64,000 nt of DNA, from NCBI GenBank assembly GCA_001793945.1, contig MGIW01000006.1:1584-65583 (forward strand), written 5' to 3'. The DNA comes from Candidatus Wolfebacteria bacterium RIFOXYD12_FULL_48_21 (GTDB lineage: Bacteria > Patescibacteriota > Minisyncoccia > UBA6257 > UBA9933). The notes under the pieces were generated by a model. It saw nothing but the letters and a program-made list of their open reading frames with translations, did not search any database and was not told the origin of the DNA. The position numbers were made by a program, and so were the translations under genes. Below are positions 7,331 through 60,724 of the stretch, piece after piece. The number at the start of each line of letters is the position of its first letter. The first letter of the stretch is position 1.

Positions 7331-7363
7331 GGGTAATTTGAAGTTTTTAATTTAGAATTTAAA
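7331..7363. repeat. AT-rich boundary element GTAATTTGAAGTTTTTAATTTAGAATTTAAA (family GTAATTTGAAATTTAGAATT)
   Basis: 5 related copies: 7331, 7717, 15803, 58013, 60686. Confidence 0.75.
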
Positions 7364-7720
7364 ATGAATGAGAATGCATATAATCTTGAGCAGCGAACGC
7401 GAGAGTTTTCTGTTCAGGTAATACGATTTCTTAAAACATTACAACAGGATACTATAAGCAGGCCGATTATTGGTCAACTAATACGGTCTGCTACCAGTGT
7501 CGGTGCAAATTATTGTGAGGCAAATGGGGCAAGCTCAAAAAAAGATTTTTGCAATAAAATATTTATTTGCAAAAAAGAGGCCAAAGAAACACATTATTGG
7601 CTTGATCTTATCGAAGAATGTTGCGGATATAAGAAGGAGCTTAATCATTTAAGAAATGAATGTGTCGAGCTGATTAGAATATTTTCTAAAATAGCCGCAA
7701 GTAGCAAAGAGGAGAGGTAA
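7364..7720 (+). CDS. four-helix-bundle protein (23S rRNA intervening-sequence protein family, TIGR02436-like)
   Basis: 118 aa; signature SATSVGANYCEANGASSKKDF...KEAKETHYWL; two paralogs at 22429 and 63131. Confidence 0.8.
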   Translation: MNENAYNLEQRTREFSVQVIRFLKTLQQDTISRPIIGQLIRSATSVGANYCEANGASSKKDFCNKIFICKKEAKETHYWLDLIEECCGYKKELNHLRNECVELIRIFSKIAASSKEER

Positions 7721-7775
7721 TTTGAAATTTAGAATTTTTAATTTATATTTTCAAATTTCGAATTTCAAATTGTAA
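7717..7775. repeat. AT-rich boundary element (ggTAAtttgaaatttagaatttttaatttatattttcaaatttcgaatttcaaattg); supplies stop codon of 7364..7720
   Basis: direct repeat of element at 7331. Confidence 0.75.
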
Positions 7776-7787
7776 ATTATCCAATGT

Positions 7788-8033
7788 ATGTCTGAAATTC
7801 TACCTAACGAAGTGTATACGACCGGGGAGGCTGAGGCTCTCTTAAAAGTGAGCAACAGCACCATGAAGCGTCTTTTGAAAAAGGGGCTCCTTCGGGCAAA
7901 CAAAGTGGGTGGGCAATACAGGATATTGGGGCATGAATTGTTGCGATTGCTTTCGCCTGAGGTAGATCAAAAGGCGACCGATCTGTATCAAAAGGTAAAG
8001 ACCATAACAAGGGAGGCGACCAAACACTGGTAA
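7788..8033 (+). CDS. helix-turn-helix DNA-binding protein (excisionase/MerR-like HTH_17 family)
   Basis: 81 aa, TGEAEALLKVSNSTMKRLLKKGLLRANKVGGQYRI matches excisionase-family HTH. Confidence 0.55.
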   Translation: MSEILPNEVYTTGEAEALLKVSNSTMKRLLKKGLLRANKVGGQYRILGHELLRLLSPEVDQKATDLYQKVKTITREATKHW

Positions 8034-8038
8034 TACAT

Positions 8039-9508
8039 ATGGATATTGACAAGCAGGCGGGGAAAAACTTTGCATGGCTCTCGACCGCACAGGTTGGCAT
8101 ACGCATTTTGGGCGCGGCGTTTTTCTTTTTTCTGTCGTACATATTGAAAGATACCGGGCTGGGCCAGTACAGCTTCGTTGCTTCGTTGGTTCCGTTTTGG
8201 TTTATTTTGGTTGATTTTGGTGCTAGTGGATATTTGTATCGCGAGTGGACTCGTGGGAAGGATGATCTAAAAACGATGGATCGTGATTTTAATATTTTGT
8301 TCACAACGCGGCTTATTATTATTTCGGCCGTGTTCATTCCGTTCGTCGCAATCAACTATGTTTCCAATCGGGATATATTGAGCTCGTTGATCCTGCTGTT
8401 CATTGCGCTGTTCATATCCCAAATGGTCGGGCTTTACGACTTGTATCTGCAATCGGCTAACCGGTTTAATGTCGTCGCCATCCGACAGGTCATAGAAAAG
8501 CTTGTGGTCACTGCTGTTGCCACCGTGGGACTGTTGTTATTGCCAAAGGTCTATGTCGTCTTTTTTGCCATTTTGGTAAGTTACATCGGCGCACTTTTGT
8601 ATTATCGGTATCGCGCCAACTTGCCATTCAGGTTTCACCTTGTATTTGATTGGGCGCGTTCCAAAGAACTGTTTCGCAAAGGAATGCCGTTTGTTTTTTT
8701 GGGCATGTTCGCCGCCATTTATGGACGCATCGACATGATCATGCTCCGGTACTTCAGTGGATTTGAAGCGGTCGGCTGGTATAGTGTTGCGTACAAGTTT
8801 TTGGATATCTCGTTTGTGTTCCCGTCGCTTTTTCTCGCCTCTATATTTCCTTTGCTTTCTTCCCTGTATGCGCGGGAAGGATCGGCCGGGCAATTTGCCA
8901 AACTGTTCGAAAAAAGTTTTCGCGTACTGTTCTCGTTTGGTGTTCTTGTGGCCGTATTTTTTATGTTTTTTGCGCCGCGCGTCATCGATCTGTTCTTTAT
9001 TGATTCGTTCGCCCCGGCGGCTCCGGCGCTGCGCATATTGATGGTAGGGCAAATGTTCGCATTTTTGAGCCTGTTGTTCAGTAATCTACTCATCGTTCAG
9101 CGAAAGGAATATAAGGGTCTGTATGTCGTCATGGCGTGCGCGTTGCTTAATATCGCGCTCAACATTTTGTTGATTCCAAAGTTTTCGCTCTATGGCGCCG
9201 CATGGGCAACGGTCGCGGCCGAGCTGGTTAATCTTGCCATATTGCAACACTATGCCGAATGGAAGACCACTCGCAATACGCTTATGACGATGTTTGCCGT
9301 GAGCGCGGGCAATTTGGCGTTGTTTGCAATATTTCACATAGCCGGCCTATTGGATGTGCTGTGGTTGGGCATTGTGGCATTGCTCTGTAACTTTGCTTTG
9401 TTGTTTGCAGTACGCTTGGTAAATAAGAATGATATACTCCTGTTTCTTGATCCGTTCGTCATGAAATTCAAAAGCCTACTGCGAAGTAATCAAGTTGATA
9501 CCGTATGA
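8039..9508 (+). CDS. polysaccharide biosynthesis protein / oligosaccharide flippase (Wzx-like, MOP superfamily)
   Basis: 489 aa, 12-14 predicted TM helices, polysacc_synt-like organisation. Confidence 0.6.
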   Translation: MDIDKQAGKNFAWLSTAQVGIRILGAAFFFFLSYILKDTGLGQYSFVASLVPFWFILVDFGASGYLYREWTRGKDDLKTMDRDFNILFTTRLIIISAVFIPFVAINYVSNRDILSSLILLFIALFISQMVGLYDLYLQSANRFNVVAIRQVIEKLVVTAVATVGLLLLPKVYVVFFAILVSYIGALLYYRYRANLPFRFHLVFDWARSKELFRKGMPFVFLGMFAAIYGRIDMIMLRYFSGFEAVGWYSVAYKFLDISFVFPSLFLASIFPLLSSLYAREGSAGQFAKLFEKSFRVLFSFGVLVAVFFMFFAPRVIDLFFIDSFAPAAPALRILMVGQMFAFLSLLFSNLLIVQRKEYKGLYVVMACALLNIALNILLIPKFSLYGAAWATVAAELVNLAILQHYAEWKTTRNTLMTMFAVSAGNLALFAIFHIAGLLDVLWLGIVALLCNFALLFAVRLVNKNDILLFLDPFVMKFKSLLRSNQVDTV

Positions 9509-10437
9509 ACAAGCCAACCCTTACTATCGGCATACCTACTTATAATCACGGTCATTTTTTAAAGGAATGCCTTGCGTGTGTTACTGGCCAGTTCGCCGGT
9601 CAGGGTATTTTTGATCGCGTAGAGATCGTGGTGTCGGACAACGGCAGTATCGACAATACGGCGGATGTTGTCCGGGAATATCAGAAGAGATTTTCAAATA
9701 TCCGATATTCCCGAAATGAAAGAAATTTGGAATTCGACCGGAATGTCGATGCCGTGCTTTCCATGGCGCGCGGGCAATTTTGCTGGACGCTGAGCAGTAA
9801 TGAATATCTGAAACCGGGGAGTATCGCATTTGTTCTTTCGGCGATCGAGCAGAATCGCGACGCGGCATTTTTATGCATATCGAATCGGCGAGAGGATATT
9901 GGGAAATCGGAGCTTCGGCGGTTCGCCAACGGAAGCCAATGGTTGAAGGATATGGGGCTGTTTGGCGGACAAATCTCCCAATGCGTATTCAATATGGAAT
10001 ATTTGCCGAGCGAGCGGGCAAAATATTACGATAATTTCTGGATCCATCTTTCGCTTTTTTGGGAAGCAGCTATTCGCCATCCGGTTGTGTTGCTGCCGTG
10101 CCTGTTTGCGCTGCCAGATGTCGTTCCGGTCTGCAAGTGGGCATGGGATCGGGGCGGTGGGCAGAATCTGATGACATATGTGTATCTTAAAAAGAATGTG
10201 GAAGGCCTTCTTCGGCTCGGTTATACTTATGAGGTAGTAGATCCTATTGTGAGCGGGTTGGCGAAAGGATTGCCTCGTATGGTCGCGTCGGCAAGATTAT
10301 GCGGATTGCCGATCGAGTGGAACAGATTTTTTCTACTGGTAAGGGAATTTTACCGCTATCCTCTGTACCTACTTGCTTCACTCGTGATTTTCGTTGTTCC
10401 CGTTATGGCGTTGCGAATGGTAAAAAAATATAGTTGA
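9505..10437 (+). CDS. glycosyltransferase family 2
   Basis: N-terminal LTIGIPTYNHGHFLKECLACV GT-A signature; start overlaps upstream stop (ATGA). Confidence 0.7.
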   Translation: MNKPTLTIGIPTYNHGHFLKECLACVTGQFAGQGIFDRVEIVVSDNGSIDNTADVVREYQKRFSNIRYSRNERNLEFDRNVDAVLSMARGQFCWTLSSNEYLKPGSIAFVLSAIEQNRDAAFLCISNRREDIGKSELRRFANGSQWLKDMGLFGGQISQCVFNMEYLPSERAKYYDNFWIHLSLFWEAAIRHPVVLLPCLFALPDVVPVCKWAWDRGGGQNLMTYVYLKKNVEGLLRLGYTYEVVDPIVSGLAKGLPRMVASARLCGLPIEWNRFFLLVREFYRYPLYLLASLVIFVVPVMALRMVKKYS

Positions 10438-10438
10438 T

Positions 10439-15070: not shown

Positions 15071-15808
15071 ATGCTTAAAGCGATCGTCAAAAAAACAAAA
15101 AAAATTGCATTGCTTCCGCTTATTATTGGGGATTATTTTGCATTCAAAAAAGCAGCCGGCCGTAACGGGCGCTTTACCGTAAATCTTGGCGATGCTTATC
15201 CGTGTCCTTTTGACAAGACCATGTTGACCGGGTTTGATCGGCATTATGTGTATCATACCGCTTGGGCGGCGCGGAAGGTTGCGTACATAAAGCCGGAGGT
15301 CCATACGGATATATCTTCGAGTCTGTATTTTTCTTCCATCGTTTCGGCTTTTGTGCCGGTAACATTTTATGATTATCGGCCGGCCGATCTTCAGTTGAGC
15401 GGCTTGCTTAGTGAAAAGGCAGATCTGCTTGCATTGCCGTTTGCAGACAATAGTGTTGCGTCGCTTTCATGCATGCATACCGTGGAGCATGTGGGGCTGG
15501 GGCGCTATGGCGACCCTATCGACCTAGATGGCGACCTGAAGGCAATCAAGGAGTTGCAGCGGGTGCTTGCGCCGGGCGGATCGCTGTTGTTCGTAGTACC
15601 GATAGGCAAGGCAAAGATCCAATTTAATGCGCATCGCATCTATTCCTACGCCATGATCATGGAATATTTTAATGATCTTGAGTTGAGGGAGTTTTCGCTT
15701 ATTCCCGAAACAAGCGGCTCCATGATCGTCAATGCAACAAGAGAGCAGGCGGACGAGGAGGCATATGGATGTGGATGCTTTTGGTTTGTGAAGAAAGGGA
15801 ATGGGTAA
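15071..15808 (+). CDS. putative SAM-dependent methyltransferase (Methyltransf_11/DUF268-like); stop codon lies inside AT-rich boundary element
   Basis: LQRVLAPGGSLLFVVPIG motif II-like; weak overall. Confidence 0.4.
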   Translation: MLKAIVKKTKKIALLPLIIGDYFAFKKAAGRNGRFTVNLGDAYPCPFDKTMLTGFDRHYVYHTAWAARKVAYIKPEVHTDISSSLYFSSIVSAFVPVTFYDYRPADLQLSGLLSEKADLLALPFADNSVASLSCMHTVEHVGLGRYGDPIDLDGDLKAIKELQRVLAPGGSLLFVVPIGKAKIQFNAHRIYSYAMIMEYFNDLELREFSLIPETSGSMIVNATREQADEEAYGCGCFWFVKKGNG

Positions 15809-15852
15809 TTTGAAATTTAGAATTTTAAATTTTAAATTTATAATTTTATATA
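15803..15852. repeat. AT-rich boundary element (gggtaatttgaaatttagaattttaaattttaaatttataattttatat)
   Basis: same family as 7331/7717. Confidence 0.75.
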
Positions 15853-18565: not shown

Positions 18566-18690
18566 GATGTGAGGTTGGAGATGTGAGATTAGAGGTGTGA
18601 GGTTGGAGATGGGAGGTATGAGATGCGAGATGAGAGATGAGAGGTGAGAGATGCGAGGTTAGGGGGTGGAGATATGAGACGGGGGGCGGA
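18566..18690. repeat. GA-rich repeat tract (gtgaggttggagatgtgagattagaggtgtgagg...gagatgcgaggttaggggg)
   Basis: direct reading, lies between two minus-strand genes. Confidence 0.7.
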
Positions 18691-20239: not shown

Positions 20240-20280
20240 ATATGGGGGCTCGCCGGCTGGCGGACGGGAATGACACACAG
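20240..20280. repeat. palindromic element fragment (ccggctggcggacgggaatgacac)
   Basis: shares ccgccRgctggcgga + ggaatgaca modules. Confidence 0.6.
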
Positions 20281-20454
20281 GGAGCGGCTCTTATAGAGGT
20301 AATGATACCGTAAAAAGGGAGTGGGTTAAAGAGGAAAATTTGAGATTAGATGTATGAGATGAGAGATTGGAGGGTAAGGGCTAACTTTATAAAGTTATGA
20401 GTATTTTGACTAACATTTATAATGTTTGAGCATGTGCGAAATTCTTAGTATGCT

Positions 20455-21142: not shown

Positions 21143-21354
21143 AACTTGGATGTATGAAATCCGCTTCACATTGGCAGAGTTTTTAGCTCTGTATATTATC
21201 GTGCGTGATTGATATACTATAATATGTTCGGGATTTTCCCGCGGCCCTGCCTTTTGAATGGTGGGGAATATGGGGTAATTAAAGAGATGGAGGTATAATT
21301 TAAAATTACCAATTTTGAATTTTTAATGGGAGAATGCTTACTATCCGTTAGTGG

Positions 21355-22363: not shown

Positions 22364-22367
22364 TAAT

Positions 22368-22399
22368 GTGAGATTGGAGGTTAGAGGTATGAGGTGTGG
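22368..22399. repeat. GA-rich repeat, left inverted repeat flanking four-helix-bundle gene
   Basis: gtgagattggaggttagaggtatgaggtgtgg; reverse complement recurs at 22811-22855. Confidence 0.65.
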
Positions 22400-22428
22400 A
22401 ATGATAAAATGAAACGAATATATTTATT

Positions 22429-22809
22429 ATGAACGGAGAATCCTTAAAGATTAGATCGTTTACTGATTTACATGCGTGGCAAGAAGCGCATGCATTAGTG
22501 GTGGCTATTTATACGCTGACAAAGTTGTTTCCCAAGGAAGAGCTTTTTGGATTAACCTCTCAAGTTCGTCGTGCCGCCATATCGGTTCCTTCTAATATTG
22601 CCGAGGGGTTTAGTAGGGGTTCATATAAAGAACGCCATCAATTCTATTCAATAGCAAGGGGATCTCTTACCGAAGTGCAGAGCCAGCTACTTATTGCGCG
22701 AGATGTACATTATATTAATAGGGACATGTGTGAAAAGCTATTTTTGCAAACAGAGACAGTTAGTCGGATAATAAATGGACTTATGAAAAGCACTAAAGCA
22801 TTATGTTGA
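22429..22809 (+). CDS. four-helix-bundle protein (23S rRNA IVS protein family)
   Basis: 126 aa, LTSQVRRAAISVPSNIAEGFSRGSYKERHQFYSIARGSLTEVQSQL. Confidence 0.8.
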   Translation: MNGESLKIRSFTDLHAWQEAHALVVAIYTLTKLFPKEELFGLTSQVRRAAISVPSNIAEGFSRGSYKERHQFYSIARGSLTEVQSQLLIARDVHYINRDMCEKLFLQTETVSRIINGLMKSTKALC

Positions 22810-22810
22810 T

Positions 22811-22855
22811 TATCTTATCTCTCACCTCTGACCTCATACCTCTCATCTCACACCC
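22811..22855. repeat. TC-rich repeat, right inverted repeat partner (tatcttatctctcacctctgacctcatacctctcatctcacaccc)
   Basis: shares cctcatacctct and atctcac with reverse complement of 22368-22399. Confidence 0.65.
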
Positions 22856-25096: not shown

Positions 25097-25270
25097 ATGA
25101 ACTATTTTAGTTGGGCAAAACTTATTCTTGGTCTTTGGGTGTTCGTTTCTCCATGGGTGCTCGGGTTTGCCGGATATCCACTCGCATTGTGGAGCAACAT
25201 TCTGAGCGGCGCGGGCATTGTTGTTCTTGTGCTTTGGACCTTGTTTGGGAAGAGGGATGCTAACAGATAA
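25097..25270 (+). CDS. SPW-repeat small membrane protein
   Basis: MNYFSWAKLILGLWVFVSPWVLGF; start moved to internal Met. Confidence 0.4.
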   Translation: MNYFSWAKLILGLWVFVSPWVLGFAGYPLALWSNILSGAGIVVLVLWTLFGKRDANR

Positions 25271-25420
25271 CAGATAACCAATAACCGATAACGAGATGCG
25301 AGGGAATAACCAATAACCAATAACAGATAACCAATAACCAATAACGGGATGCGGGAAATAACCTATGACAGATAACTAATAACCGATAACGAGATGCGAG
25401 GGGAAAACATAAAATTATTT
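25262..25420. repeat. (ATAACCRATRAC)n low-complexity repeat, three units each ending in G(A/G)GATGCG(A/G)GG
   Basis: taacagataacagataaccaataaccgataacgagatgcgaggg...ataaccaataacgggatgcggg...ataaccgataacgagatgcgagggg. Confidence 0.8.
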
Positions 25421-25684: not shown

Positions 25685-25748
25685 TGGCAGAATGTATACG
25701 GTATACGGTATACTGTATACATACTACGCTTCTCTTATCTCTAACTAT

Positions 25749-27715: not shown

Positions 27716-29227
27716 ATGAGATATTTTTTACAAACAATCTTTGCCGCTACTATTGTATTATTTTTTATTGCCAATGTTGGTACTGTTTTTGCCGCGGAGG
27801 GGGATTTGGTGTGGACGCAGGTCAATAACCCGAGTGCGATTTCTGATGCCGCGGGACCCATTGCCGTCGACGCGAGCGGCATTTATGTTGCGGGTTATGA
27901 TACAATCCCCGGCAATTACCAGTGGCGCATAGAAAAGCGCAGCCTTTCCGATGGTGCGGTTATATGGACCAAAACAAGTAACCCGAGTTCGGATACTGAT
28001 TATGCGACAGCCATTGCCATCGACGCGAGCGGCATTTATGTCGCTGGGTATGATTATGTTTCCGGCAGGTTCTTTCGATGGCGCATAGAAAAGCGCAGCC
28101 TTTCCGATGGCGCGGTCATATGGACCAAAACGAATGACCCGAGTGCGAGTCATGATATTGCTAACGCCATTACCATCGACGCGAGCGGTATTTATGTCGC
28201 CGGGTTTGATTCTATTCTCGCCAACTATCAATGGCGCATAGAAAAGCGCAGCCTTTCCGACGGCGCGATCATATGGACCAAAACGAACAACCCGAGTGCG
28301 GGCGGTGATTATGCGACAGCCATTACCGTCGACGCGAGCGGCATTTATGTCGCTGGGGTGGATGCTATTCCCGGAAACAATCAATGGCGCATAGAAAAGC
28401 GCAGCCTTTCCGACGGCGCGGTGATTTGGACCCAAACAAGCAATCCGAGTGCGCAACCTGAGGGTGTAGGCGCCATCACCGTCGACGCGAGCGGCATTTA
28501 TGTCGTCGGTGATGATTTTACTCCCGGTTTCGGCAATTCCCAATGGCGCATAGAAAAGCGCAGCCTTTCCGACGGCGCGGTGATTTGGACCCAAACAAGC
28601 AATCCGAGTGCGAGTTATGATGGCCCTGGATCCATTGCCATCAACGCGATCGGTATTTATGTCGCCGGGTTTGATTCTATTCTCGCCAACTATCAATGGC
28701 GCATAGAAAAGCACAGCCTTTCCGACGGTGCGGTCATATGGACTAAAACGAACAACCCGAGTGCGAGTTCTGATGTCCCGGGAGGCATTGCCGTTGATGC
28801 GATTGGTATTTATGTGGCGGGTAATGACCGTGCGTCCGTCAATGATCAATGGCGCATAGAAAAGCGTGAAAGAGCTTCCTTCATCTGCGCTGGTCCGTTT
28901 GCCGCATCTTGGACCGATTCGACCATTACCGCCAACAGCACCAAGATCCGCAAGGTGCACATCGACGAGTTGCGGAGCGCGATAAACACTCGTCGTATCG
29001 ACGCCGGGTTAACTAACTATTCTTGGACCGATCCGACGATCACAGCCAATTCCACCAAAATCCGTAAGGTGCACATTGATGACCTCCGCACGGCAATTTC
29101 GCAAGTCTATACGACCTGTGGGCAAGCGGCCCCGAGTTGGACCGATCCGACGATCACAGCCAACACCACCAAAATCCGCAAGGTGCATATTGATGAATTG
29201 CGGAGCGCGGTCAGTAATGCCCAATAA
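27716..29227 (+). CDS. secreted SBBP-type beta-propeller repeat protein with C-terminal triple 40-aa repeat
   Basis: signal peptide; 7-8 x ~50 aa blades WRIEKRSLSDGAVIWTKTNNPSA...IDASGIYVAGYD (SBBP-like DxSGnIYVTG); then 3 x SWTDPTITANSTKIRKVHIDELRSAI. Confidence 0.55.
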   Translation: MRYFLQTIFAATIVLFFIANVGTVFAAEGDLVWTQVNNPSAISDAAGPIAVDASGIYVAGYDTIPGNYQWRIEKRSLSDGAVIWTKTSNPSSDTDYATAIAIDASGIYVAGYDYVSGRFFRWRIEKRSLSDGAVIWTKTNDPSASHDIANAITIDASGIYVAGFDSILANYQWRIEKRSLSDGAIIWTKTNNPSAGGDYATAITVDASGIYVAGVDAIPGNNQWRIEKRSLSDGAVIWTQTSNPSAQPEGVGAITVDASGIYVVGDDFTPGFGNSQWRIEKRSLSDGAVIWTQTSNPSASYDGPGSIAINAIGIYVAGFDSILANYQWRIEKHSLSDGAVIWTKTNNPSASSDVPGGIAVDAIGIYVAGNDRASVNDQWRIEKRERASFICAGPFAASWTDSTITANSTKIRKVHIDELRSAINTRRIDAGLTNYSWTDPTITANSTKIRKVHIDDLRTAISQVYTTCGQAAPSWTDPTITANTTKIRKVHIDELRSAVSNAQ

Positions 29228-30082: not shown

Positions 30083-30086
30083 TAGC

Positions 30087-30390
30087 ACTGTCATTCCCGT
30101 GAAAACGGGAATCCAGTTTTCTGTACTTTTTTCTAAGAAAAAAGTACCCGTCGGATTCGTGTAAGAATAATCGAATCCGACAGCCCGGCCCGCTGCACAC
30201 TCTCCGCCGGCCCTGCCTACCGGCAGGCAGGTGGCGGATCGTTAGCAACGCCAAGGGTAAAAAGTCGCGAGCGAATAAAAAATGCCGGAGTACCCTATGC
30301 TGTCATCCCGGGCTTGACCCGGGATCTCGATGATTATTGACGAGATTCTGGCTTCCGCTAGTCTGCGGACAGGCGTGGGCCGGAATGACA
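30087..30390. repeat. Cluster of palindromic elements between rpsB and tsf (gtcattcccgtgaaaacgggaatccag; ccgccggccctgcctaccggcaggcaggtggcgga; gtcatcccgggcttgacccgggat; ...ggccggaatgacat) plus two perfect hairpins 30124-30182
   Basis: direct reading. Confidence 0.8.
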
Positions 30391-30471
30391 TGAATTAGAT
30401 GTTGCCCCGCCATTTTCACAGGCTCGCACAGAGGGCTCAGGATAAAAAATAATTAAACCAATTTTATCACT

Positions 30472-30915
30472 ATGGCAATGGAAGATGTAGCAAAATTGCG
30501 GGAATTGACCGGAGCGGGTGTTGTGGAGTGCAAAAAGGCACTCGATGAGGCAGCGGGGGATTTCGACCGTGCAAAAGACATCATTTTTGAGCGCGGCATC
30601 GCCCGAGCCGAGAAAAAGAGCGATCGTGCGACTGGCGCAGGGCTGTTGGAGACCTATATTCACAATGGCCGCGTGTCCGTTATGCTTGAACTGCGTTGCG
30701 AGACCGATTTTGTGGCGCGCAATGAAAAGTTTCAAGCCTTGGCGCACGACATCGCTATGCATATCGCCGCGATGAATCCGGCGACCGTTGAGGAATTGTA
30801 CGCCCAGCAGTATGTAAAGGATCCCTCCATGACTGTTGAGGAGCTGATCAAAAATTTGATTGGAACCATCGGGGAGAATATGAAGGTGGAGAAGTTTGTG
30901 AGATTCGAGATCTGA
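30472..30915 (+). CDS. tsf: elongation factor Ts (short form)
   Basis: 147 aa, VAKLRELTGAGVVECKKALDEA UBA-like N-terminus, conserved TDFVARNE motif. Confidence 0.85.
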   Translation: MAMEDVAKLRELTGAGVVECKKALDEAAGDFDRAKDIIFERGIARAEKKSDRATGAGLLETYIHNGRVSVMLELRCETDFVARNEKFQALAHDIAMHIAAMNPATVEELYAQQYVKDPSMTVEELIKNLIGTIGENMKVEKFVRFEI

Positions 30916-30944
30916 GATAAGAGATTAGTGGTGAGAGGTAAGAT

Positions 30945-30982
30945 AAATCCCGAATGGCATGCCATTTGGGATTTGTTTTTTA
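30945..30982 (+). terminator. rho-independent terminator (aaatcccgaatggcatgccatttgggattt + T6)
   Basis: direct reading. Confidence 0.65.
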
Positions 30983-31011
30983 GGGGGTAATCGCCGTATA
31001 ATAAAGTAATT

Positions 31012-31467
31012 ATGTATCACTTTGTATTGCAAATTTTGATCATGATCTCGTTGGGTGTATTAGTCTATTTGGCTGCCCGCAAGATCCCGCAAATATCGGA
31101 CACGGTTGATGAAGATACCACCGGCCAGTCCAAGGGGGTTTGGTATCGAATAGAGCTCCTGCTTGGGCGGTTGCCGCTTGATCGGTTTGACCTTGCCGTG
31201 AGCCAATTTTTGGAAAAAAATGTCCGCAAGATGAAGCTGATACTTGCGCGGCTTGATAATTATCTGACCCATCATTTGGAGCAGTTTAAGAAGGTCAAAC
31301 AGCGCACACACCGCAAACAGCAAAAGAAATTTGCGCTGTTTGAGTCTGCGGAGACCGCGGAAGGGGAACCGGATCTGAAGGCGATCGCGGAGCTCGATGA
31401 GGCACAGACCCGCTCTACCGAGGCACCCGAGGCCATAAAAAAGGAGGAATCAGACCTTGCAAAATAA
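31012..31467 (+). CDS. hypothetical membrane protein
   Basis: 151 aa, one N-terminal TM helix, charged C-terminus; no recognisable family. Confidence 0.35.
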   Translation: MYHFVLQILIMISLGVLVYLAARKIPQISDTVDEDTTGQSKGVWYRIELLLGRLPLDRFDLAVSQFLEKNVRKMKLILARLDNYLTHHLEQFKKVKQRTHRKQQKKFALFESAETAEGEPDLKAIAELDEAQTRSTEAPEAIKKEESDLAK

Positions 31468-32994: not shown

Positions 32995-33054
32995 TAAAAA
33001 ATGCGCCATAAGTATACTGAATATGCTTTTGGCGCATTTTTTATAATATATTCA
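32995..33054 (+). terminator. rho-independent terminator (aaaaaatgcgccat...ttggcgcattttttat)
   Basis: long hairpin with T-run after rpmG. Confidence 0.55.
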
Positions 33055-33061
33055 ATCAATC

Positions 33062-33123
33062 TGTCATTCCCGCGGAGGCGGGAATCCAGTATTATATAGA
33101 TTCCCGCCTCCGCGGGAATGACA
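33062..33123. repeat. palindromic element: gtcattcccgcggaggcgggaatccag...gattcccgcctccgcgggaatgacac (nested inverted copies)
   Basis: direct reading. Confidence 0.8.
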
Positions 33124-33160
33124 CGCAAGAAGATCGTCATAGTGCGATAAGCCCATAAAC

Positions 33161-35640: not shown

Positions 35641-35742
35641 TTGTCATTCCGAGCGTATCCGCCAGTAGGCGGAGCAGTCGAGGAATCTGCAGCGTTTTTA
35701 CTACAGATCCCTCGGCTCCGTTTCACTACACTCGGGATGACA
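35641..35742. repeat. palindromic element (ttgtcattccgagcgtatccgccagtaggcggagcagtcgaggaatctgcag...ctcgggatgacat)
   Basis: direct reading. Confidence 0.75.
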
Positions 35743-35842
35743 TGCCAAGTGTAGTAATCGAGAGTCGTCAGGTTGTCGTGGTGTAGGATGCTAGTACATT
35801 GCCTTGACCTTTTGTACTATAATAGCTATACAGACCATACAT

Positions 35843-41802: not shown

Positions 41803-41892
41803 TTGTCATTCCGAGCGAAGAAGTACTCTTCGTAGTCGAGGAATCTGCTTTATGACTTCAGATTCCTCGACAAGCTCGGAATGACAATACAC
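41803..41892. repeat. palindromic element pair (ttgtcattccgagcgaagaagtactcttcgtagtcgaggaatctg...cagattcctcgacaagctcggaatgacaat)
   Basis: direct reading. Confidence 0.8.
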
Positions 41893-41912
41893 AAGCATTT
41901 AACTCATTAATC

Positions 41913-44437: not shown

Positions 44438-44487
44438 GGATTCCTCCGCCGGCCCTGCCTGCCGGCAGGCAGGTGGCGGACGGGAAT
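44438..44487. repeat. palindromic element (ccgccggccctgcctgccggcaggcaggtggcggacgggaatgacaa)
   Basis: near-identical to 30205-30239 module. Confidence 0.75.
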
Positions 44488-44561
44488 GACAAACATATGG
44501 GAATAAAAAACCCCGACTCTTGCGAGTCGGGGTGGTTATCAAAAAAGGGAACGGATGTCGG

Positions 44562-47887: not shown

Positions 47888-48075
47888 CCTACAACCGACA
47901 ACTAACGACCTATAACGGGATGCAAAGGTTGTCATTCCGGCCTACGAGCCGGAATCTCATGAAAAAATCATGGGATTATAGATCAAGAAATTTGAAAATT
48001 AATGACATTTAATGTCGTTAAAAATATGCGGGTGCTATTGTCGACGAGATCCCGGGTCAAGCCCGGGATGACAAA
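47887..48075. repeat. (ACAACCGACAACTAACGACCTATAAC)GGGATGC unit followed by palindromic element fragments (ttgtcattccggcctacgagccggaat; gatcccgggtcaagcccgggatgacaa)
   Basis: direct reading. Confidence 0.7.
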
Positions 48076-48122
48076 CTTCTGGGCCTGTGGAAATACAGCA
48101 AAAAATGTTAAAATAACGGCAT

Positions 48123-48794: not shown

Positions 48795-49973
48795 ATGAAA
48801 AACCTTTCCGCATTGTACGACCGGAATCTTTCCGAAGAGATCGTCATCGTTCGCGTCGATCTGAATATTAATAACAAGACCTTGCGTGTAAGCGGGCCTA
48901 ATTTGCGCGTCACCTCCATTATCCCAACGATCAAATTCTTGACCAAGCGTGGCGCAAAGGTCGTGCTGGTCAGCCATCGGGGAAGACCGGCTGGCGTAAC
49001 CAATAACCAACGACCAATAACCGATAACATAAAAGAATTTACATTGAAACCGTTTGCGAAGATCCTTGGTGGATTACTGAAGAAAGATGTTTCGTTTATT
49101 CCGCACGATACGAAAGAATATCGTTTGTTTTCGGATGCGAGCGCCGAGAAGATCAAAAAAGCCTCAAAGGGTTCCGTGTTCCTGCTTGAAAACATGCGTT
49201 TCTTTGCCGGCGAAGAGAAGAACGACCCCGCCGTCGTGCGTCCGCTTGCGGAGCTGGGTACATTTTATGTGAATGACGCATTTGCCGTCAGTCATCGCAA
49301 GAACGCTTCGGTGGTCGCCATCACCAAGCTATTGCCTTCGTGCGCGGGGCTTCTGTTGGAAAAGGAAGTGTTTCATATGGACGAAGCAATCAATAACCAT
49401 AAACATCCGTTTGTGGTCATTTTGGGTGGCGCAAAAATGACCGACAAGATGGGGCTGATCAAGCGCTTTATCGGCAAAGCCGATTACTTTCTCGCGGGGG
49501 GTGGCGTGGCCAATACATTTTTTGCGGCCGACGGCCTGCCGATCGGCGATTCCATTTATGAATCGCACATGATCCCCGTTGCAAAAAAGATCATGAAAAC
49601 GAACAAGGTCATTATGCCTATGGATGTTGCCATTTTCGAACGAAAGATCGTAGACAACGGCCCGGGAACGACCGACGAGTGGGTGGAGATCATCAAAAAC
49701 GCAAAGACGATCATTTGGAATGGGCCGGTAGGCGTTATTGAAAACAAAAAATTTGCCAAGGGTTCCGTTGGCATTGCGCAGGCCATCGCCAAGAGCAAGG
49801 CGTTTTCTGTGGTGGGTGGTGGTGAAACAGCACTTGCCTTTACAGGCGTTCCGCTTAAAAAGAACACATTTCTTTCTACGGGGGGTGGTGCGATGTTGGA
49901 GTACCTTTCTGGCATCAAGCTGCCTGGAATAGAGGCGCTGCGCGAGAAAAAAGGAAAAGGAAAAAAGAAATAA
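48795..49973 (+). CDS. pgk: phosphoglycerate kinase carrying an in-frame (ATAACC)-repeat insertion
   Basis: 392 aa; VRVDLNI, SHRGRP, VFLLENMRFFAGEEKNDP, YVNDAFAVSHR motifs; between GRP and EFTLKPF sits GVTNNQRPITDNIK encoded by aaccaataaccaacgaccaataaccgataac. Confidence 0.9.
   Translation: MKNLSALYDRNLSEEIVIVRVDLNINNKTLRVSGPNLRVTSIIPTIKFLTKRGAKVVLVSHRGRPAGVTNNQRPITDNIKEFTLKPFAKILGGLLKKDVSFIPHDTKEYRLFSDASAEKIKKASKGSVFLLENMRFFAGEEKNDPAVVRPLAELGTFYVNDAFAVSHRKNASVVAITKLLPSCAGLLLEKEVFHMDEAINNHKHPFVVILGGAKMTDKMGLIKRFIGKADYFLAGGGVANTFFAADGLPIGDSIYESHMIPVAKKIMKTNKVIMPMDVAIFERKIVDNGPGTTDEWVEIIKNAKTIIWNGPVGVIENKKFAKGSVGIAQAIAKSKAFSVVGGGETALAFTGVPLKKNTFLSTGGGAMLEYLSGIKLPGIEALREKKGKGKKK
48998..49029. 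repeat. (ATAACCRAYRAC)n repeat embedded in frame in pgk
   Basis: sequence matches intergenic repeat units at 25262-25420. Confidence 0.75.
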
Positions 49974-51626: not shown

Positions 51627-51668
51627 ATGCTTTGCATTACGAAACTTCATTTGCTGCTTTAAAATAGC

Positions 51669-51752
51669 ACTGTCATCCTGAATTTATTTCAGGATCTCTC
51701 AGTGATATCAATCAGATTCTGAATCCGCCGGCTGGCGGATCAGAATGACAAA
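51669..51752. repeat. palindromic element variant (ctgtcatcctgaatttatttcaggatctc...cagattctgaatccgccggctggcggatcagaatgacaaa)
   Basis: direct reading. Confidence 0.75.
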
Positions 51753-51785
51753 ATGAGTTTTGTAATTCAAAGTGTATAGGCTATA

Positions 51786-53582: not shown

Positions 53583-53776
53583 ATTGAGATAGTATATTTA
53601 ATTCTGTAAGTCGACCCTTCTCATAGGCCTCGAGAGCGCATAAAACAAAAACGTTTTACCTTCATTATCCACATCCGCTACAGCAGTTCAGGATTGGAAG
53701 CAAACTGAGAAAACTTACTGTTCACAGTATAAACCACCTCTCTATAAATAGCAAATGGCGTTGGGGGGGAGGGGGG

Positions 53777-53820
53777 ATAACTGATGACTGATGACTAATG
53801 ACCGATGACGGGATGCGGGG
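53777..53820. repeat. (ATAACTGATGAC)n repeat ending GGGATGCGGGG
   Basis: gataactgatgactgatgactaatgaccgatgacgggatgcgggg; preceded by G-tracts. Confidence 0.75.
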
Positions 53821-53829
53821 AGTTGCATA

Positions 53830-56002: not shown

Positions 56003-56114
56003 ATGTTGCTTTATAATCTATATGGGTAAGTATATCATGTTTTTAATTCCTCGCTAACTAATGGGTCTATTGGGTTCGCCAACTATAAAAAACAGCCCAG
56101 TAGGCGGGCTGTTT

Positions 56115-58010
56115 TTAGTTGAAGGTCAGTGCATCAACGATCTCATCGATGTTTGCGGTGGCAACTCCTACCACCTTGTCCGCTCCGCCGTAGTAGATAA
56201 ATAGCTTTTTGCCATTGACGGTGCTTCCGCAGGGGAATACCACATTGGGTATGATTCCGTTCTTTTCGTAATCCGTTTCCGGTGCGAAGATATAGTCGGT
56301 CGTTCGCGCCAGTACGATCATCGGATCGTGCAGATCGAGCAATAGGGCGCCGACTCGATAGATGCCTTCTTCGGAAACGCCATGATAGAGGAGGAGCCAT
56401 CCCTTTGTTGTTTTGATCGGTACCGATGCGATACCGACTTTTCGGCCATCCCACATCCCGCGCCGTGGTCCGATGATTGGCGTGAAGGTGTCTATCTTAT
56501 TAGTATCAAAATCAAGTGATTTGATTGGGTCGAGGCAGATATGCTCATGCGTACGGTGGAACACAAGATAGTTGTCGCCAATCTTTTCCGGGAACAGGCA
56601 GGAATCCTTGTCGTCCACGGTCGCCGGTGTAATGATTGCCGGCCAGGACCAGTTCCAATTCTTTTTTAGAAAATCTGCCGTCGATATGCTTGTTGCCGCA
56701 ACCGCCGGGGAATGGGTGCCATCGTAAGCCGTATAGAACATATACAGCATGTCATCTATCTGGGTAATGCGCGGATCTTCGCACCCTGAGTTTCCCGGAT
56801 GCGTCTTTTTTTCAAACGATTCGCGGGGAACATAGATCGGATGATCAACGCGTTCTGTTATTTTCATGCCATCTTTGCTGCATGCGTATCCCAGTACCGA
56901 TGTATCATCGTCGCCCATGGCGCGATATATGATATGTATCTTGCCTCCGATTTCCACGGCAGTCGGGTTGAATACCGCCTTATTTTCCCACGCATGTTCC
57001 TTGATTGGTTCGAGAATGGGATTCTTTTTATACCGGGTAACCACCGGCTCTTTTTTCATGCTCTTGAGTAGTGCCTCAAGATTCACATCGGCCCGGCAGC
57101 AGGTCGTATCGGTCGCGCCATAATAGATATACAGTTCGTTTCCTTTGATAGTCGCGCCGGATGGGAAGATGACATTTGGGATCTGCCCAAACTCCTCGTA
57201 GGTTTCTTCGGGAATGAGTAATGGACTGTCGGTGCGGGCAATGATCTTTTTGGGATCTTTTAGGTCGAGTAAAAGTGCTTCAATGCCGAAGATCTTGTTG
57301 TCGCTGAAGTAATTCTGAATATGCGAATAGATGACCAGCCAGCCATCTTTCGTCTTAAGCGGCACGGCTCCGATCTCGACTTGATCGCTATCTTTTCTGC
57401 GAACGATCATGCGATGAGATTCTATTTCGTTGTGCCATTTGTCCCAATATGCCGTTGACCATATTTGGTCGATGGTATCGAATTCTGCCAAGGCTATTTT
57501 TACCGGCGGCATATCGGTGTGCGCCGCCAAAAGGGCTACATATTTGCCGTTGATCTTTTCGGGGAACAGCGCCATCGCCTTTGCATTGAAGGGTGTTACC
57601 AAATGCCGTTCGGTGATCGTTTCGAAGTCCTTGGTCATCGCCACGGCGATGCGGATACCTTCCGCACTGAATGGGAATGTGCCGAGCGCGGTATAAAAAA
57701 TATAATAGGTGTCGTCGATCTTCGTGACGCGTGGATCTTCACATCCGTATTTTTCCCACTCATATTTGGGTGTGATCAACGGTTTGCGGGGTTCGTACCA
57801 GTGGCCGTCCTTGCTTACGCCGTATCCGATGGTCGAGAGGCGGAGTTCGTGCCCTTTGATATATTTCATCTCGGACATCGCCCGGTAGACGCAATGGAAT
57901 TTGTTCTTGTCTTGGATCGGGCACCAATTAAAGGCAGCGAATGATTCCCATGGATGGTCTATGGTTGGACTAATGATGGGGTTATAGAGTGAGCGTTTTA
58001 CTACGAACAT
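56115..58010 (-). CDS. GH130-like (DUF377) beta-propeller glycoside phosphorylase/hydrolase-family protein with two tandem propeller domains
   Basis: 631 aa; each half carries GCEDPR(V/I)T..IDD.YY.FYTA motif typical of GH130/GH43-type 5-bladed propellers. Confidence 0.5.
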   Translation of the reverse strand: MFVVKRSLYNPIISPTIDHPWESFAAFNWCPIQDKNKFHCVYRAMSEMKYIKGHELRLSTIGYGVSKDGHWYEPRKPLITPKYEWEKYGCEDPRVTKIDDTYYIFYTALGTFPFSAEGIRIAVAMTKDFETITERHLVTPFNAKAMALFPEKINGKYVALLAAHTDMPPVKIALAEFDTIDQIWSTAYWDKWHNEIESHRMIVRRKDSDQVEIGAVPLKTKDGWLVIYSHIQNYFSDNKIFGIEALLLDLKDPKKIIARTDSPLLIPEETYEEFGQIPNVIFPSGATIKGNELYIYYGATDTTCCRADVNLEALLKSMKKEPVVTRYKKNPILEPIKEHAWENKAVFNPTAVEIGGKIHIIYRAMGDDDTSVLGYACSKDGMKITERVDHPIYVPRESFEKKTHPGNSGCEDPRITQIDDMLYMFYTAYDGTHSPAVAATSISTADFLKKNWNWSWPAIITPATVDDKDSCLFPEKIGDNYLVFHRTHEHICLDPIKSLDFDTNKIDTFTPIIGPRRGMWDGRKVGIASVPIKTTKGWLLLYHGVSEEGIYRVGALLLDLHDPMIVLARTTDYIFAPETDYEKNGIIPNVVFPCGSTVNGKKLFIYYGGADKVVGVATANIDEIVDALTFN

Positions 58011-58012
58011 GA

Positions 58013-58045
58013 GAAAGTAATTTGAAATTTAAAATTCGAAATGAC
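58013..58045. repeat. AT-rich boundary element (gaaagtaatttgaaatttaaaattcgaaatgac) abutting start codon of 56115..58010
   Basis: same family as 7331/7717/15803/60686. Confidence 0.7.
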
Positions 58046-58095
58046 ACACCCTGTCATTTCGATTCGCCAGCTGGCGGACGAGGAATCTGCAGGAT
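58041..58095. repeat. palindromic element fragment (ctgtcatttcgattcgccagctggcggacgaggaatctgcag)
   Basis: direct reading. Confidence 0.7.
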
Positions 58096-58101
58096 GGATG
58101 T

Positions 58102-59958
58102 TTACGCGAGTTTTGTCAGGGTGATGTGCGCCGTTTTGATCGGCACTGTGGTTTCGGGTGTCGATTCTTTCATGACCGCTTCGAGAAACTCGTCGAGTGG
58201 TGCGGTTGCCACACATGCGACACTGTCGGCTCCGCCATAGTAGACAAAGAGCGTATCGTCTTTGATGACACTGCCGCAGGCGAAGACTACGCCACGCTTT
58301 GCGCCCTCGTTTTCGTACCATTCGTTCGGTTCCAACAAGGGGATATTTGAACGATAGAGTATCTTTGTGGGGTCGTCATGGTCCAATATCATTGCGCCGA
58401 CTTTGTACCGATTCGGATCACGCTTGTCCATTGCATGGTAGAGTACTAACCACCCCTCTTTTGTTTTGAGTGGTGGCGTTGCCGCGCCGCGCATAAGGTT
58501 ATCCCATCGTGTCCGGTCTCCACTGCAGGAAAACGGACTTTCAATCGCCATTTCTGCGTCCATCGGGTCGTCGAAGTAATCGATTCGGATCGTAGGATTG
58601 ATGCCGTGCAGAAATGCATATTTGCCGTGGATCTTTTCCGGAAACATGACCCAGTTTTTTTGGATCTGTTCCGGTTTTGATATCAGGATCGGTTCTGCCC
58701 AATTCCAGTTTTTTTCAAGAAAGTCAGATACCGGTATCGAGGTAAGTGCCATTCCGGGCGGATGATATCCGTCGAATGCGGTGTAGGTCATGTAGATCGT
58801 GTCGTCCACCTTGACCATGCGCGGATCTTCGCAACCGCTCCAACTGCCACCCGACATATAAAAGTTCACATAGCGTTCCTTTTTAGCTTTTGGCTCCCCG
58901 TAATGTTCCTTGGCGATATAGACCGGCTTTTCCGACCGTTCTTCAAAATTGATACCGTCTTCACTGGACGCGTGGCCGATATATGACATGCCGTTTGCGC
59001 CGATCGCCCGATAGAGCAGGTGTACTCTGCCATCGAGATAGATGGCCGCGGGGTTGAATGTCGCTTCACATTCCCAATGATTGTCGGGATTTGGCGTGAT
59101 GATCGGATTGGCGGGGTGCCGCACGAGTGCTACCGCAGGTTCCACCGGTTGTGGACCGAACAGGGACACGGGGAGTGTGACGGATATGACCTTATTTTTT
59201 TGCGTTCGCCAGTAGTGTTGGATCTGTCCATTGCGATAGACCGTGCCGAGGGAAACTGCCGGAGCGGATCCCTTTGCAAGTGTGGTTTCCCAAATAGGGA
59301 ATGCCGAGCGCCATATCGGGCGGTAGGGTTGGTCGTATGCAAACAGTGCCGCTCCCATAAGGATATGGTTTGCATTGTGTTCGTAGTCGGTTGCATCGTA
59401 GATTGTCAGGATACCCGCGCTGATCGCAGCGGCTCCGATGACGCTCAGTGTCGCACTGTCGAACTCTTCATTGCGCCTATCGAGCAGGGGGCCGGTGATG
59501 TTCCAGTTTTGAAAATCTTTTGTTGCCGCCGCGCGAATTGAACCGTTTCCAAGATATGCGATAAAGTGATCCTTGTATGCGTGGTTTGGAACAATAACAA
59601 GCGGTTCGTTTGCAAAAGGCGTTTTACTGATGACGCGAAAGGTTGTTAGGTCGCTTGAGGCGGCGACGATCCGTTCTGTTTTATTGCGTATGGTGCGCGT
59701 ATAGGTGAGGTACTGCGTAGGGCCGTCATTTGTGATTTGGAAGTGAGTGGCATGGGTGAGCGGTTCCGGCTCTCCGATTGTCGTAAGAACGGCAACTTCG
59801 TTCGCCAATGCAAAATTTACTCCGTCGGAGGCGGTAAAAAGAAACAGTTTCGTTTTTGAAGCGAGCGGGAGCACATACAGGAGTGCGAGTGTATCACCAA
59901 TAGAGGTGACGGCGACGGAGATCATTTGATTTTTGTCGGGTGTAACTGCTTTTTTCAT
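58102..59958 (-). CDS. GH130-like (DUF377) beta-propeller family protein, paralog of 56115..58010, with distinct N-terminal beta-rich domain
   Basis: 618 aa; C-terminal half has SGCEDPRMVKVDDTIYMTYTAFDG and NWNW motifs shared with neighbour. Confidence 0.5.
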   Translation of the reverse strand: MKKAVTPDKNQMISVAVTSIGDTLALLYVLPLASKTKLFLFTASDGVNFALANEVAVLTTIGEPEPLTHATHFQITNDGPTQYLTYTRTIRNKTERIVAASSDLTTFRVISKTPFANEPLVIVPNHAYKDHFIAYLGNGSIRAAATKDFQNWNITGPLLDRRNEEFDSATLSVIGAAAISAGILTIYDATDYEHNANHILMGAALFAYDQPYRPIWRSAFPIWETTLAKGSAPAVSLGTVYRNGQIQHYWRTQKNKVISVTLPVSLFGPQPVEPAVALVRHPANPIITPNPDNHWECEATFNPAAIYLDGRVHLLYRAIGANGMSYIGHASSEDGINFEERSEKPVYIAKEHYGEPKAKKERYVNFYMSGGSWSGCEDPRMVKVDDTIYMTYTAFDGYHPPGMALTSIPVSDFLEKNWNWAEPILISKPEQIQKNWVMFPEKIHGKYAFLHGINPTIRIDYFDDPMDAEMAIESPFSCSGDRTRWDNLMRGAATPPLKTKEGWLVLYHAMDKRDPNRYKVGAMILDHDDPTKILYRSNIPLLEPNEWYENEGAKRGVVFACGSVIKDDTLFVYYGGADSVACVATAPLDEFLEAVMKESTPETTVPIKTAHITLTKLA

Positions 59959-59984
59959 GCGCGCTTAAATACTTTTGTTGCGGG

Positions 59985-60332
59985 TTATGAAGAAGTTCTT
60001 CCGTATGAGTCTTCGAGTCGCACTATATCGTTTTCATTGAATGCGCCAAAGGCCAGCTCAAGGATGCGAACGGTTTGTTCATTTGCCTTTATGCGGTGGT
60101 GCGTTTTTTTAGGAACAACAAATTCATCGCCTTCTTTTGCGATCGTTTCATTTTCACCAATGATAATAGTCGGATTGCCGTCGAGTACCCTCCAAAATTC
60201 CTCGCGGTCATTATGATATTGCAAGCTCAGTTGCTTGCCGGCAGTAACGGTGACCAATTTGACGGTGCTTGGCTCGTTTACTGTGAACCGACGAAAGGAG
60301 CCCCATGGCCGTTGTTCATCTTGGATATCCAT
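59985..60332 (-). CDS. cupin-domain protein (mannose-6-phosphate isomerase type II C-terminal-like)
   Basis: 115 aa; QRPWGSF...SLQYHNDREEFWRVLDG cupin motifs. Confidence 0.6.
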   Translation of the reverse strand: MDIQDEQRPWGSFRRFTVNEPSTVKLVTVTAGKQLSLQYHNDREEFWRVLDGNPTIIIGENETIAKEGDEFVVPKKTHHRIKANEQTVRILELAFGAFNENDIVRLEDSYGRTSS

Positions 60333-60436
60333 AGTTCAATAGATAAAATTGATATTTTTTCGATGCCTGTTCTATAAGTATACTATATCTGACAGGCAAA
60401 AGAAAAAGTAACATTGACCCGCGATGGGTGGGATTT

Positions 60437-60685
60437 TTATGTCGATCCGATCAGGCACAGTTTTTGTGCGCGGGTCAATGTTTTAATAAAGGCTTCCCGC
60501 TTGAGCGCTTCGTTGCGCGAGGGCGCTTCTTCCGTATATGCTATGCGCTTTGCTCCACGGGCATGGACATATTTTGAGCCTTTGCCCGCGGCGTGTTCGG
60601 CAAAGCGGCGATCGACATCGGTTGCTATGCCTGTGTAGAGGGACCCGTCCGAGCATTCGAGAATATAAACGAAATAACAAGGCAT
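60437..60685 (-). CDS. GIY-YIG nuclease-family protein (UPF0213-like)
   Basis: 82 aa; YFVYILECSDGSLYTGIATDVDRRFAEH = GIY-YIG signature. Confidence 0.7.
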   Translation of the reverse strand: MPCYFVYILECSDGSLYTGIATDVDRRFAEHAAGKGSKYVHARGAKRIAYTEEAPSRNEALKREAFIKTLTRAQKLCLIGST

Positions 60686-60724
60686 AGGGTAATTTGAAAT
60701 TTAGAATTCGAAATTTGAAATAAA
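60686..60724. repeat. AT-rich boundary element (gggtaatttgaaatttagaattcgaaatttgaaataaaag) abutting GIY-YIG start
   Basis: same family. Confidence 0.7.

Follow-up and report, generated by a model that had tools for sequence, protein, structure and literature searches.

Heptanucleotide repeat arrays at gene junctions and around four-helix-bundle genes in a Candidatus Wolfebacteria genome

What is the short AT-rich element that recurs at gene boundaries in a 64,000-nt stretch of the genome of Candidatus Wolfebacteria bacterium RIFOXYD12_FULL_48_21 (contig MGIW01000006.1; the whole stretch is called the window here)? A preliminary description of this DNA had reported five copies of the element, each joined to a gene end, and had proposed that it is an organism-specific terminator or promoter cassette or the footprint of a cassette-insertion mechanism. 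In this study, we found that the element, hereafter AATTT, is one AT-rich type within a class of heptanucleotide tandem arrays colonizing gene junctions in this genome, and that oppositely oriented pairs of such arrays are the arms of small selfish cassettes with an S23p-type four-helix-bundle gene as cargo. Copies 1 and 2, together with the gene 7364-7720, constitute one cassette, and copies 3, 4 and 5 are cargo-less arrays.

Searching the window with GTAATTTGAAATTTAGAATT and allowing up to three mismatches returned five matches, starting at 7333, 7717, 15805, 58017 and 60689 and all on the plus strand, compared with an expectation of 0.01 from dinucleotide-preserving shuffles; the five copies at gene ends were thus borne out. 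Three of them have the exact 21-mer GGTAATTTGAAATTTAGAATT in common. Tandem Repeats Finder revealed that every copy is the head of a 7-base tandem array, (NNAATTT)n, reading GTAATTT GAAATTT AGAATTT TTAATTT and so on. As had been claimed, the TAA of the motif is the stop codon of the genes 7364..7720 (TAA at 7718-7720) and 15071..15808 (TAA at 15806-15808). The distance from the end of the array to the plus-strand ATG is 0 nt at 7364, about 5 nt at 7788 and 0 nt at 15852. The two copies beside minus-strand genes had been said to abut the start codons directly; they do lie near them, but gaps of 6 nt (start codon 58008-58010) and 3 nt (60683-60685) intervene. The GT11 open reading frame (ORF) beginning at 15801 was correctly suspected of carrying a false N-terminal extension, the real start being 15852, which is used in the pipeline calls of most assemblies and from which the Pfam match begins at residue 3.

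The AATTT arrays belong to a larger population. A scan of lags 2 to 15 over the window gave enrichment only at 7 and 14, and at least six heptamer types occur at gene ends, namely GAGRTRN and its complement, TAACCNA, GATGACT, GTATACG, GTTCACN and AATTTNN, with TAACNNA and GATGACT arrays found, for example, at 25255-25398 and 53776-53819. The window is 88% coding, yet 14/16 arrays lie between genes. In spacers of at least 86 nt, the arrays abut a stop or start codon more often than random placement would give (Fisher p = 2e-5, with the array limits set by hand), which upholds the placement at gene boundaries. A Shine-Dalgarno sequence is absent before the genes preceded by arrays and present before the other genes of the window.

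Three genes of the window, here named 4HB-1, 4HB-2 and 4HB-3 (4HB, four-helix bundle), encode members of PF05635 (23S_rRNA_IVP; E = 4.8e-18, 4.7e-39 and 6.1e-33, respectively), and all three match TIGR02436. 4HB-1 is also matched by the PDB entry 2rld (E = 4e-15), which was deposited with five chains. Both flanks of each of the three genes carry a heptamer type particular to that gene, the downstream units being the reverse complement of the upstream ones. At 4HB-3, with AGTTCAC upstream and GTGAACT downstream, the pairing is weak. The cassette of 4HB-1 extends over 7331-7782, from GGGTAATTT (7331) to AAATTATCC (7782). The earlier observation that copies 1 and 2 bracket this gene was correct, and the view that they are direct repeats applies to 7717-7750, yet 7752-7782 is a complementary right arm. 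Of the earlier suggestions, that of a cassette-insertion footprint came closest, copies 1 and 2 being the boundary repeats of a four-helix-bundle cassette. The arms of 4HB-2 form a predicted duplex of -44.2 kcal/mol (z = -4.1), as good as which none of 500 shuffles was found; the AATTT-type arms of 4HB-1 give -18.3 kcal/mol (z = -3.0; 8/500 shuffles as good). The three cargo genes have a G+C content of 36-43% compared with a gene mean of 48.5%. The coordinates of these features are collected in the table.

Coordinates of array copies, cassette parts and related features in the window
Feature	Position	Strand	Remarks
AATTT array copy 1	7331..7363	+	Left arm of the 4HB-1 cassette; starts at the predicted transcription start; ends at ATG 7364
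AATTT array copy 2	7717..7782	+	7717-7750 is a direct copy of the left arm and holds the stop codon
Right arm of the 4HB-1 cassette, within copy 2	7752-7782	+	Complementary to copy 1; terminates in AAATTATCC; followed by ATG 7788
AATTT array copy 3	15803..15851	+	No ORF of its own; occupies all of the spacer between the methyltransferase stop (15806-15808) and the GT11 start (15852)
AATTT array copy 4	58017..58042	+	Upstream of minus-strand GH130a, 6 nt from its start (58010); adjoins hairpin 58036-58062
AATTT array copy 5	60687..60724	+	Upstream of the minus-strand GIY-YIG gene, 3 nt from its start (60685)
Degenerate AATTT copy	21283..21328	+	Includes the near-palindrome GGTATAATTTAAAATTACC
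4HB-1	7364..7720	+	PF05635/TIGR02436; 35.9% G+C
Left arm of 4HB-2, (GAGGTNN)n	22364..22400	+	Begins directly after the CorA stop
4HB-2	22429..22809	+	PF05635, E = 4.7e-39
Right arm of 4HB-2, (NNACCTC)n	22810..22855	+	Reverse complement of the left arm; terminates at ATG 22856
AGTTCAC units	63095..63125	+	Upstream of 4HB-3
4HB-3	63131..63484	+	PF05635; cassette absent from relatives L107 and L109
GTGAACN units	63474..63507	+	Overlap the 4HB-3 stop; weak complement of the upstream AGTTCAC units
ORF-less hairpin	4992..5081	+	Built from inverted heptamer arrays (GAGATNN arm, 17-nt loop, NNATCTC arm); terminates at ATG 5082
Promoter-like site TTGACA-18-TACAAT	7297..7326	+	11/12 matches; transcription predicted to start at about 7333, on the first array base

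Homologous cassettes were found far beyond this genome. A metagenome scan with an alignment of the three 4HB proteins recovered 80 loci with 29-59% identity to 4HB-1; in 42 of these loci, heptamer arrays are found no more than 150 nt from the gene ends. When flanks were scored by an ungapped inverted-repeat score, 75% of the 71 testable homologues exceeded z = 3 (median z = 8.2), compared with 8% of 125 control genes from the same contigs (Mann-Whitney p = 1.7e-20); direct repeats were not enriched. The 53 positive cassettes fall into 51 clusters at 90% identity, and 7 is the best internal period in 37/46 arms. By type, 23 are AATT, 16 are ATGAC and 14 are other; the AATT type predominates among the nearest homologues of 4HB-1, and in 14/23 cassettes of this type no more than 9 nt separate the end of the right arm from the next ORF start. 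The arms are complementary within each cassette and vary freely from one cassette to another, with no motif common to them. The nearest protein neighbour carries the matching arm type in 34/39 cases. The upstream neighbour is co-directional in 54/59 cassettes, compared with 68% of other gene pairs. These data show the generality of the cassette architecture and its co-direction with the upstream gene.

The check suggested earlier, whether the same element stands beside four-helix-bundle genes elsewhere, hence gave a strongly positive answer, and the idea of an organism-specific element had to be abandoned, as AATT-type arrays accompany homologous genes in 23 unrelated metagenome contigs. A scan for the motif in a collection of one genome per species, of which the source genome is not part, gave 10 matches; five fall on AATTT array heads of unrelated metagenome-assembled genomes, and five look like chance or coding matches. 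Plasmid homologues are concentrated in Nostoc, Calothrix, Trichormus, Anabaena and Scytonema, with Riemerella in addition. These cyanobacterial taxa are where heptamer repeats were first described. Plain inverted heptamer arms were seen in three of six plasmid loci inspected: a Calothrix brevissima plasmid with GGGTGTA/TACACCC units (z = 15), a Picosynechococcus plasmid with the cassette between cas10 and cmr3 (z = 6.3) and a Riemerella plasmid (z = 6.9). The Picosynechococcus cassette (L116; Picosynechococcus sp. PCC 7003, NZ_CP016476.1, 126543-126899) has inverted GGAGATA/TATCTCC arms and occupies the exact junction of cas10 and cmr3 in a type III-B CRISPR module, which fits the reported occurrence of 23S_rRNA_IVP genes in cas loci (PMC3936711). 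Carriage by phages was considered as well and is not indicated, the viral contigs having yielded no GIY-YIG relative and one four-helix relative.

How can an insert be tolerated exactly between a stop codon and the next start codon? The explanation that we favour overall, and to which we would give an even chance of being right, is that the heptamer-array cassettes are the architecture of 23S rRNA intervening sequences moved into protein-coding operons. In Coxiella burnetii, such a sequence interrupts helix 45 of the 23S rRNA, contains an S23p ORF and is closed by a 28-bp stem formed from terminal inverted repeats; the ORF is immediately preceded by three or four tandem GACAGAT heptamers, the first of which is the place in the stem where RNase III cleaves (PMC4990558). 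By analogy, read-through from the co-directional upstream gene would transcribe the cassette, and its arms would pair in the transcript, so that the insert is looped out and the upstream stop codon and the downstream start codon are rejoined at the base of the stem. The long arm duplex would be a substrate of RNase III, as in the Coxiella intervening sequence, and the A/U-rich arm may then provide the next gene with a leader that has no Shine-Dalgarno sequence. Pairing of this kind would explain why the insert is tolerated at such a position.

Several observations weigh against this explanation. Arm mismatches comprise 55 G.U and 65 A.C pairs, and this wobble-pair test thus reveals no RNA-strand signature of selection; lacking a G.U excess, the pairing receives no RNA-specific support, and a role at the DNA level becomes a serious rival. 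The duplex of 4HB-1 is weak and AU-rich, the arms of 4HB-3 pair poorly (z = -1.5), and for single AATTT arrays folding is no better than that of their shuffles, with z between +0.2 and -1.8. In three Nostoc plasmid copies, the heptamers on the two sides of the gene do not complement each other. Finally, a sixth strong AATTT head lies just beyond the window (L110, 12168-12200), and all six strong heads are on one chromosome strand regardless of gene direction, which hints at a process acting on DNA.

In such a DNA-level account, the arms would act as the ends of a mobile element or as recombination sites, as single-stranded DNA hairpins of the kind known from REP/REPIN-RAYT systems (REP, repetitive extragenic palindromic), IS200/IS605 and integron attC sites, or they could be products of template switching during replication, and RNA pairing would be incidental. 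We take this rival seriously and still consider it improbable. Besides the mismatch pattern and the strand bias, which extends to nearly all solo arrays of the other types, even beside minus-strand genes, it can draw on the presence or absence of arrays and of the 4HB-3 cassette at orthologous junctions of relatives, and on a 9-bp direct repeat, CAATGTATG (7323-7331 and 7782-7790), that brackets the 4HB-1 cassette and resembles a target duplication. The first copy of this repeat overlaps the -10 box and the second holds the start codon of the helix-turn-helix gene. Across the 53 homologous cassettes, however, target-site duplication showed no excess over permuted partners. Nor do the cassettes have a common arm motif that an enzyme could recognize, and no transposase or integrase lies beside those in the window. 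No RAYT (Y1 transposase) is present among the annotated genes of about 84 kb, no genome-wide search for transposases having been made. Moreover, the co-direction of the upstream gene in 54/59 cassettes is better explained at the level of transcription. As for the orientation of individual arrays, the G-rich or GGTAATTT strand of the solo arrays (18566-18658, 58017-58042, 60687-60724 and others) is the plus strand, including beside minus-strand genes; the GC skew is positive over the entire window.

The behaviour of the arrays over time bears on several of the competing explanations. The window sequence belongs to a groundwater population of the Rifle aquifer and is 99.9-100% identical in more than 20 assemblies, and no variation in array copy number or length was seen around 4HB-1 in 10 assemblies from different samples, indicating that the arrays do not behave as phase-variable microsatellites on that time scale. 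Two relatives, L107 and L109, whose GH130a orthologs are 88% and 91% identical and whose gene order is kept, present a different picture. In the window, the GH130b/GH130a spacer measures 91 nt and contains an AATTT array; in L109 it measures 111 nt and its AATTT array has another composition, and in L107 it has 16 nt and no array. At the 4HB-3 junction, which lacks the cassette in both relatives, the spacers are 9 and 142 nt; no clean empty site was found there, as only 10 nt (ATTGGTGAGC) are common and the insertion boundaries are undefined. L109 lacks the GATGACT array found ahead of the pseudouridine synthase gene in the window. Likewise, the GIY-YIG gene is at its locus in all three genomes, and the array upstream of it (copy 5) is in the window alone. 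It follows from these data that arrays and cassettes are labile insertions at the 5' edge of genes and not conserved control elements.

It has also to be considered that the arrays are neutral microsatellites, that is, simple heptamer repeats arising by replication slippage in tolerant non-coding DNA. Among the long simple repeats of many prokaryotes, heptanucleotide repeats have been reported to be the most abundant (Mrazek 2007, cited in PMC4679880), copy number differs among Coxiella strains, and the orthologous arrays of the window and L109 differ by whole units. Nevertheless, this reading is already disfavoured and appears quite unlikely, given that length is constant in the 10 assemblies, that the units are heterogeneous with an order constant over 21 nt in three dispersed copies, that arms are complementary across 350-nt genes, and that arrays abut gene ends within long spacers.

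Lability among relatives also speaks against a regulatory role, of which two versions deserve attention. One holds that a protein reading 7-nt units, either the four-helix-bundle pentamer or an RNA-binding protein of the cold-shock or S1 type, binds to the arrays and that translation of the next gene is regulated in this way, which has been proposed for the TAACTGA repeats of Beggiatoaceae. All five copies are 0-6 nt from a start codon without a Shine-Dalgarno sequence, each array has 4-7 units, the arm type tracks the lineage of the four-helix protein, and start-codon heptamers have been reported from Beggiatoaceae (PMC4679880) and Nostoc (bioRxiv 10.1101/2022.06.06.494920). However, the orthologous genes of the relatives manage without an array, arrays are found at stop codons too and in one case in frame inside the phosphoglycerate kinase (PGK) gene, and movement of the cassette as a unit would equally lead one to expect that arm type and protein are inherited together, so that we regard this version as unlikely, if somewhat less so than the microsatellite reading.

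The other version is the promoter or terminator cassette of the preliminary description, which we consider very unlikely. Promoter-like hexamers are indeed found inside copy 2 (TTGAAA-16-TATATT, 7722-7749) and inside copy 3 (TTTAGA-17-TATAAT, 15816-15844, 7 nt ahead of ATG 15852), and the hairpin 58036-58062 followed by the array as a U-rich tail could pass for a terminator. Such hexamer matches are, however, expected from the AT-rich composition of arrays 2 and 3, and an intrinsic terminator was recognized at a single site, the hairpin beside copy 4, and at none of copies 1, 2, 3 and 5. As a general explanation, the proposal is further contradicted by G+C-richer heptamer arrays that occupy equal positions and by the lack of conservation in relatives, the orthologous GH130b/GH130a spacer of the 88%-identical relative doing without an array.

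Some other features of the window were recorded alongside the arrays. Many arrays (25271-25398, 53776-53825, 47888-47930, 184-240) have a common layout, consisting of a G run, the heptamers and a tail such as GGGATGCGGG or GAGATGCGAGGG, and 25271-25398 contains three such modules consecutively. A (TAACCAA)n array at 48994-49034 is in frame within the PGK gene, where it adds the loop VTNNQRPITDN after the conserved SHxGRP motif. The (GTATACG)n array at 25692-25747 is read as the N-terminus of thioredoxin reductase in some calls (326 aa) and excluded in others (307 aa), and is a false extension. The EF-Ts gene (30472-31467 region) is called at just 147 aa, with a GAGATNN array at its end (30900-30943), then a hairpin and a 141-aa ORF without a Pfam match; it may be a split or shortened tsf gene. 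A 153-bp-period tandem repeat (27827-28866; 6.7 copies, 78% matches) within the 503-aa ORF 27716-29227 is 6 nt shorter in one assembly.

A second repeat family, hairpin-forming and similar to REP sequences or miniature inverted-repeat transposable elements (MITEs), has the ends TGTCATTCCGAG...CTCGGAATGACA, often with the inner palindrome CCGCCAGCCGGCGG, and occupies more than 12 intergenic spacers, including 60-180, 2100-2330, 3020-3125, 20250-20290, 30085-30470, 33040-33130, 35680-35790, 41803-41893, 44450-44520, 47925-48090, 51640-51760 and 58056-58090. There is a resemblance between its end GGAATGACAATGCGGG and the GATGACN arrays with their GGGATGCGGG tails. Ends of this family flank the GIY-YIG gene (1310-1591) of the metagenome locus L041, a gene that is also flanked by heptamer arrays (a single case). 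In the window, we considered and rejected the possibility that copy 5 is part of a GIY-YIG cassette; the flanks of the GIY-YIG gene form no inverted repeat, and the gene is kept in relatives without the array.

The cassettes tie together two puzzles, the nature of heptamer tandem repeats and the origin of rRNA intervening sequences with their S23p ORF. S23p genes that lie outside rRNA generally stand between inverted heptamer arrays, and such arrays also occur solo at gene junctions; if this holds genome-wide, it offers a concrete and testable model for both. Going further, genes with an S23p product and heptamer arms might form one widespread class of mobile cassettes, of which the 23S rRNA intervening sequences would be an rRNA-resident special case and the heptamer repeats of cyanobacteria, Bacteroidota, Beggiatoaceae and candidate phyla would be arms or ORF-less remnants, with the four-helix pentamer recognizing its own heptamer type and mediating spread or processing. 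We put this forward as a speculative and rather doubtful generalization. The practical consequence is more immediate, in that arrays produce false N-terminal extensions (GT11 at 15801 and thioredoxin reductase at 25692), mask real starts and add an in-frame loop to PGK.

Among known systems, the copies are best filed under heptamer tandem repeats and S23p-carrying intervening sequences, and what is new is the link of both outside rRNA; full-text literature searches returned no paper linking non-rRNA four-helix genes to inverted heptamer arrays. The cassettes share with the S23p intervening sequences of Leptospira and Coxiella the cargo family (PF05635/TIGR02436), the terminal inverted repeats that close a stem around the ORF, the tandem heptamers at the ORF start, a G+C content below the genome average and a sporadic occurrence among relatives. 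The Coxiella sequence, for instance, has 36% G+C in a genome of 42.5% (PMC4990558), and rRNA insertions of the candidate phyla radiation carry 23S_rRNA_IVP and GIY-YIG ORFs (PMC11270868). In contrast, the cassettes of the window lie outside rRNA, between protein-coding genes and from stop codon to start codon, and ORF-less copies of their arms are dispersed at other gene junctions of the window. An Rfam search of the window gave two tRNAs only, with no rRNA and no other known RNA family, and by the same means none of 20 homologous loci was placed in rRNA.

Short repeats of other bacteria resemble the arrays in part. REP/BIME/REPIN elements and MITEs are similarly short, intergenic, hairpin-forming, multicopy, and present or absent among relatives, but the arrays differ from them in their internal 7-base tandem structure and in having neither a consistent target duplication nor a conserved end motif. 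From slippage-type heptanucleotide repeats the arrays are set apart by being identical in 10 assemblies, with differences solely between species-level relatives. The short tandemly repeated repetitive (STRR) sequences of heterocystous cyanobacteria and the long heptanucleotide simple repeats (Mrazek 2007) are like the arrays in their head-to-tail period of 7, their mostly intergenic location and the several unit families per genome, and the plasmid four-helix homologues are concentrated in Nostoc, Calothrix and Anabaena. The host of the window, whose best protein relatives bear names that point to Candidatus Omnitrophota, is, however, not a cyanobacterium, and its arrays have heterogeneous units in a fixed order and form inverted pairs around a gene. 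Finally, the TAACTGA direct repeats of marine Beggiatoaceae (PMC4679880) and the (TTTTGAA)3 repeats of Nostoc PCC 7120 (bioRxiv 10.1101/2022.06.06.494920) adjoin start codons without a Shine-Dalgarno sequence and have been treated as possible regulator binding sites. In the window, too, heptamers precede start codons without a Shine-Dalgarno sequence by a few bases, and its arrays differ from both in their inverted pairs and cargo genes, which were not reported there.

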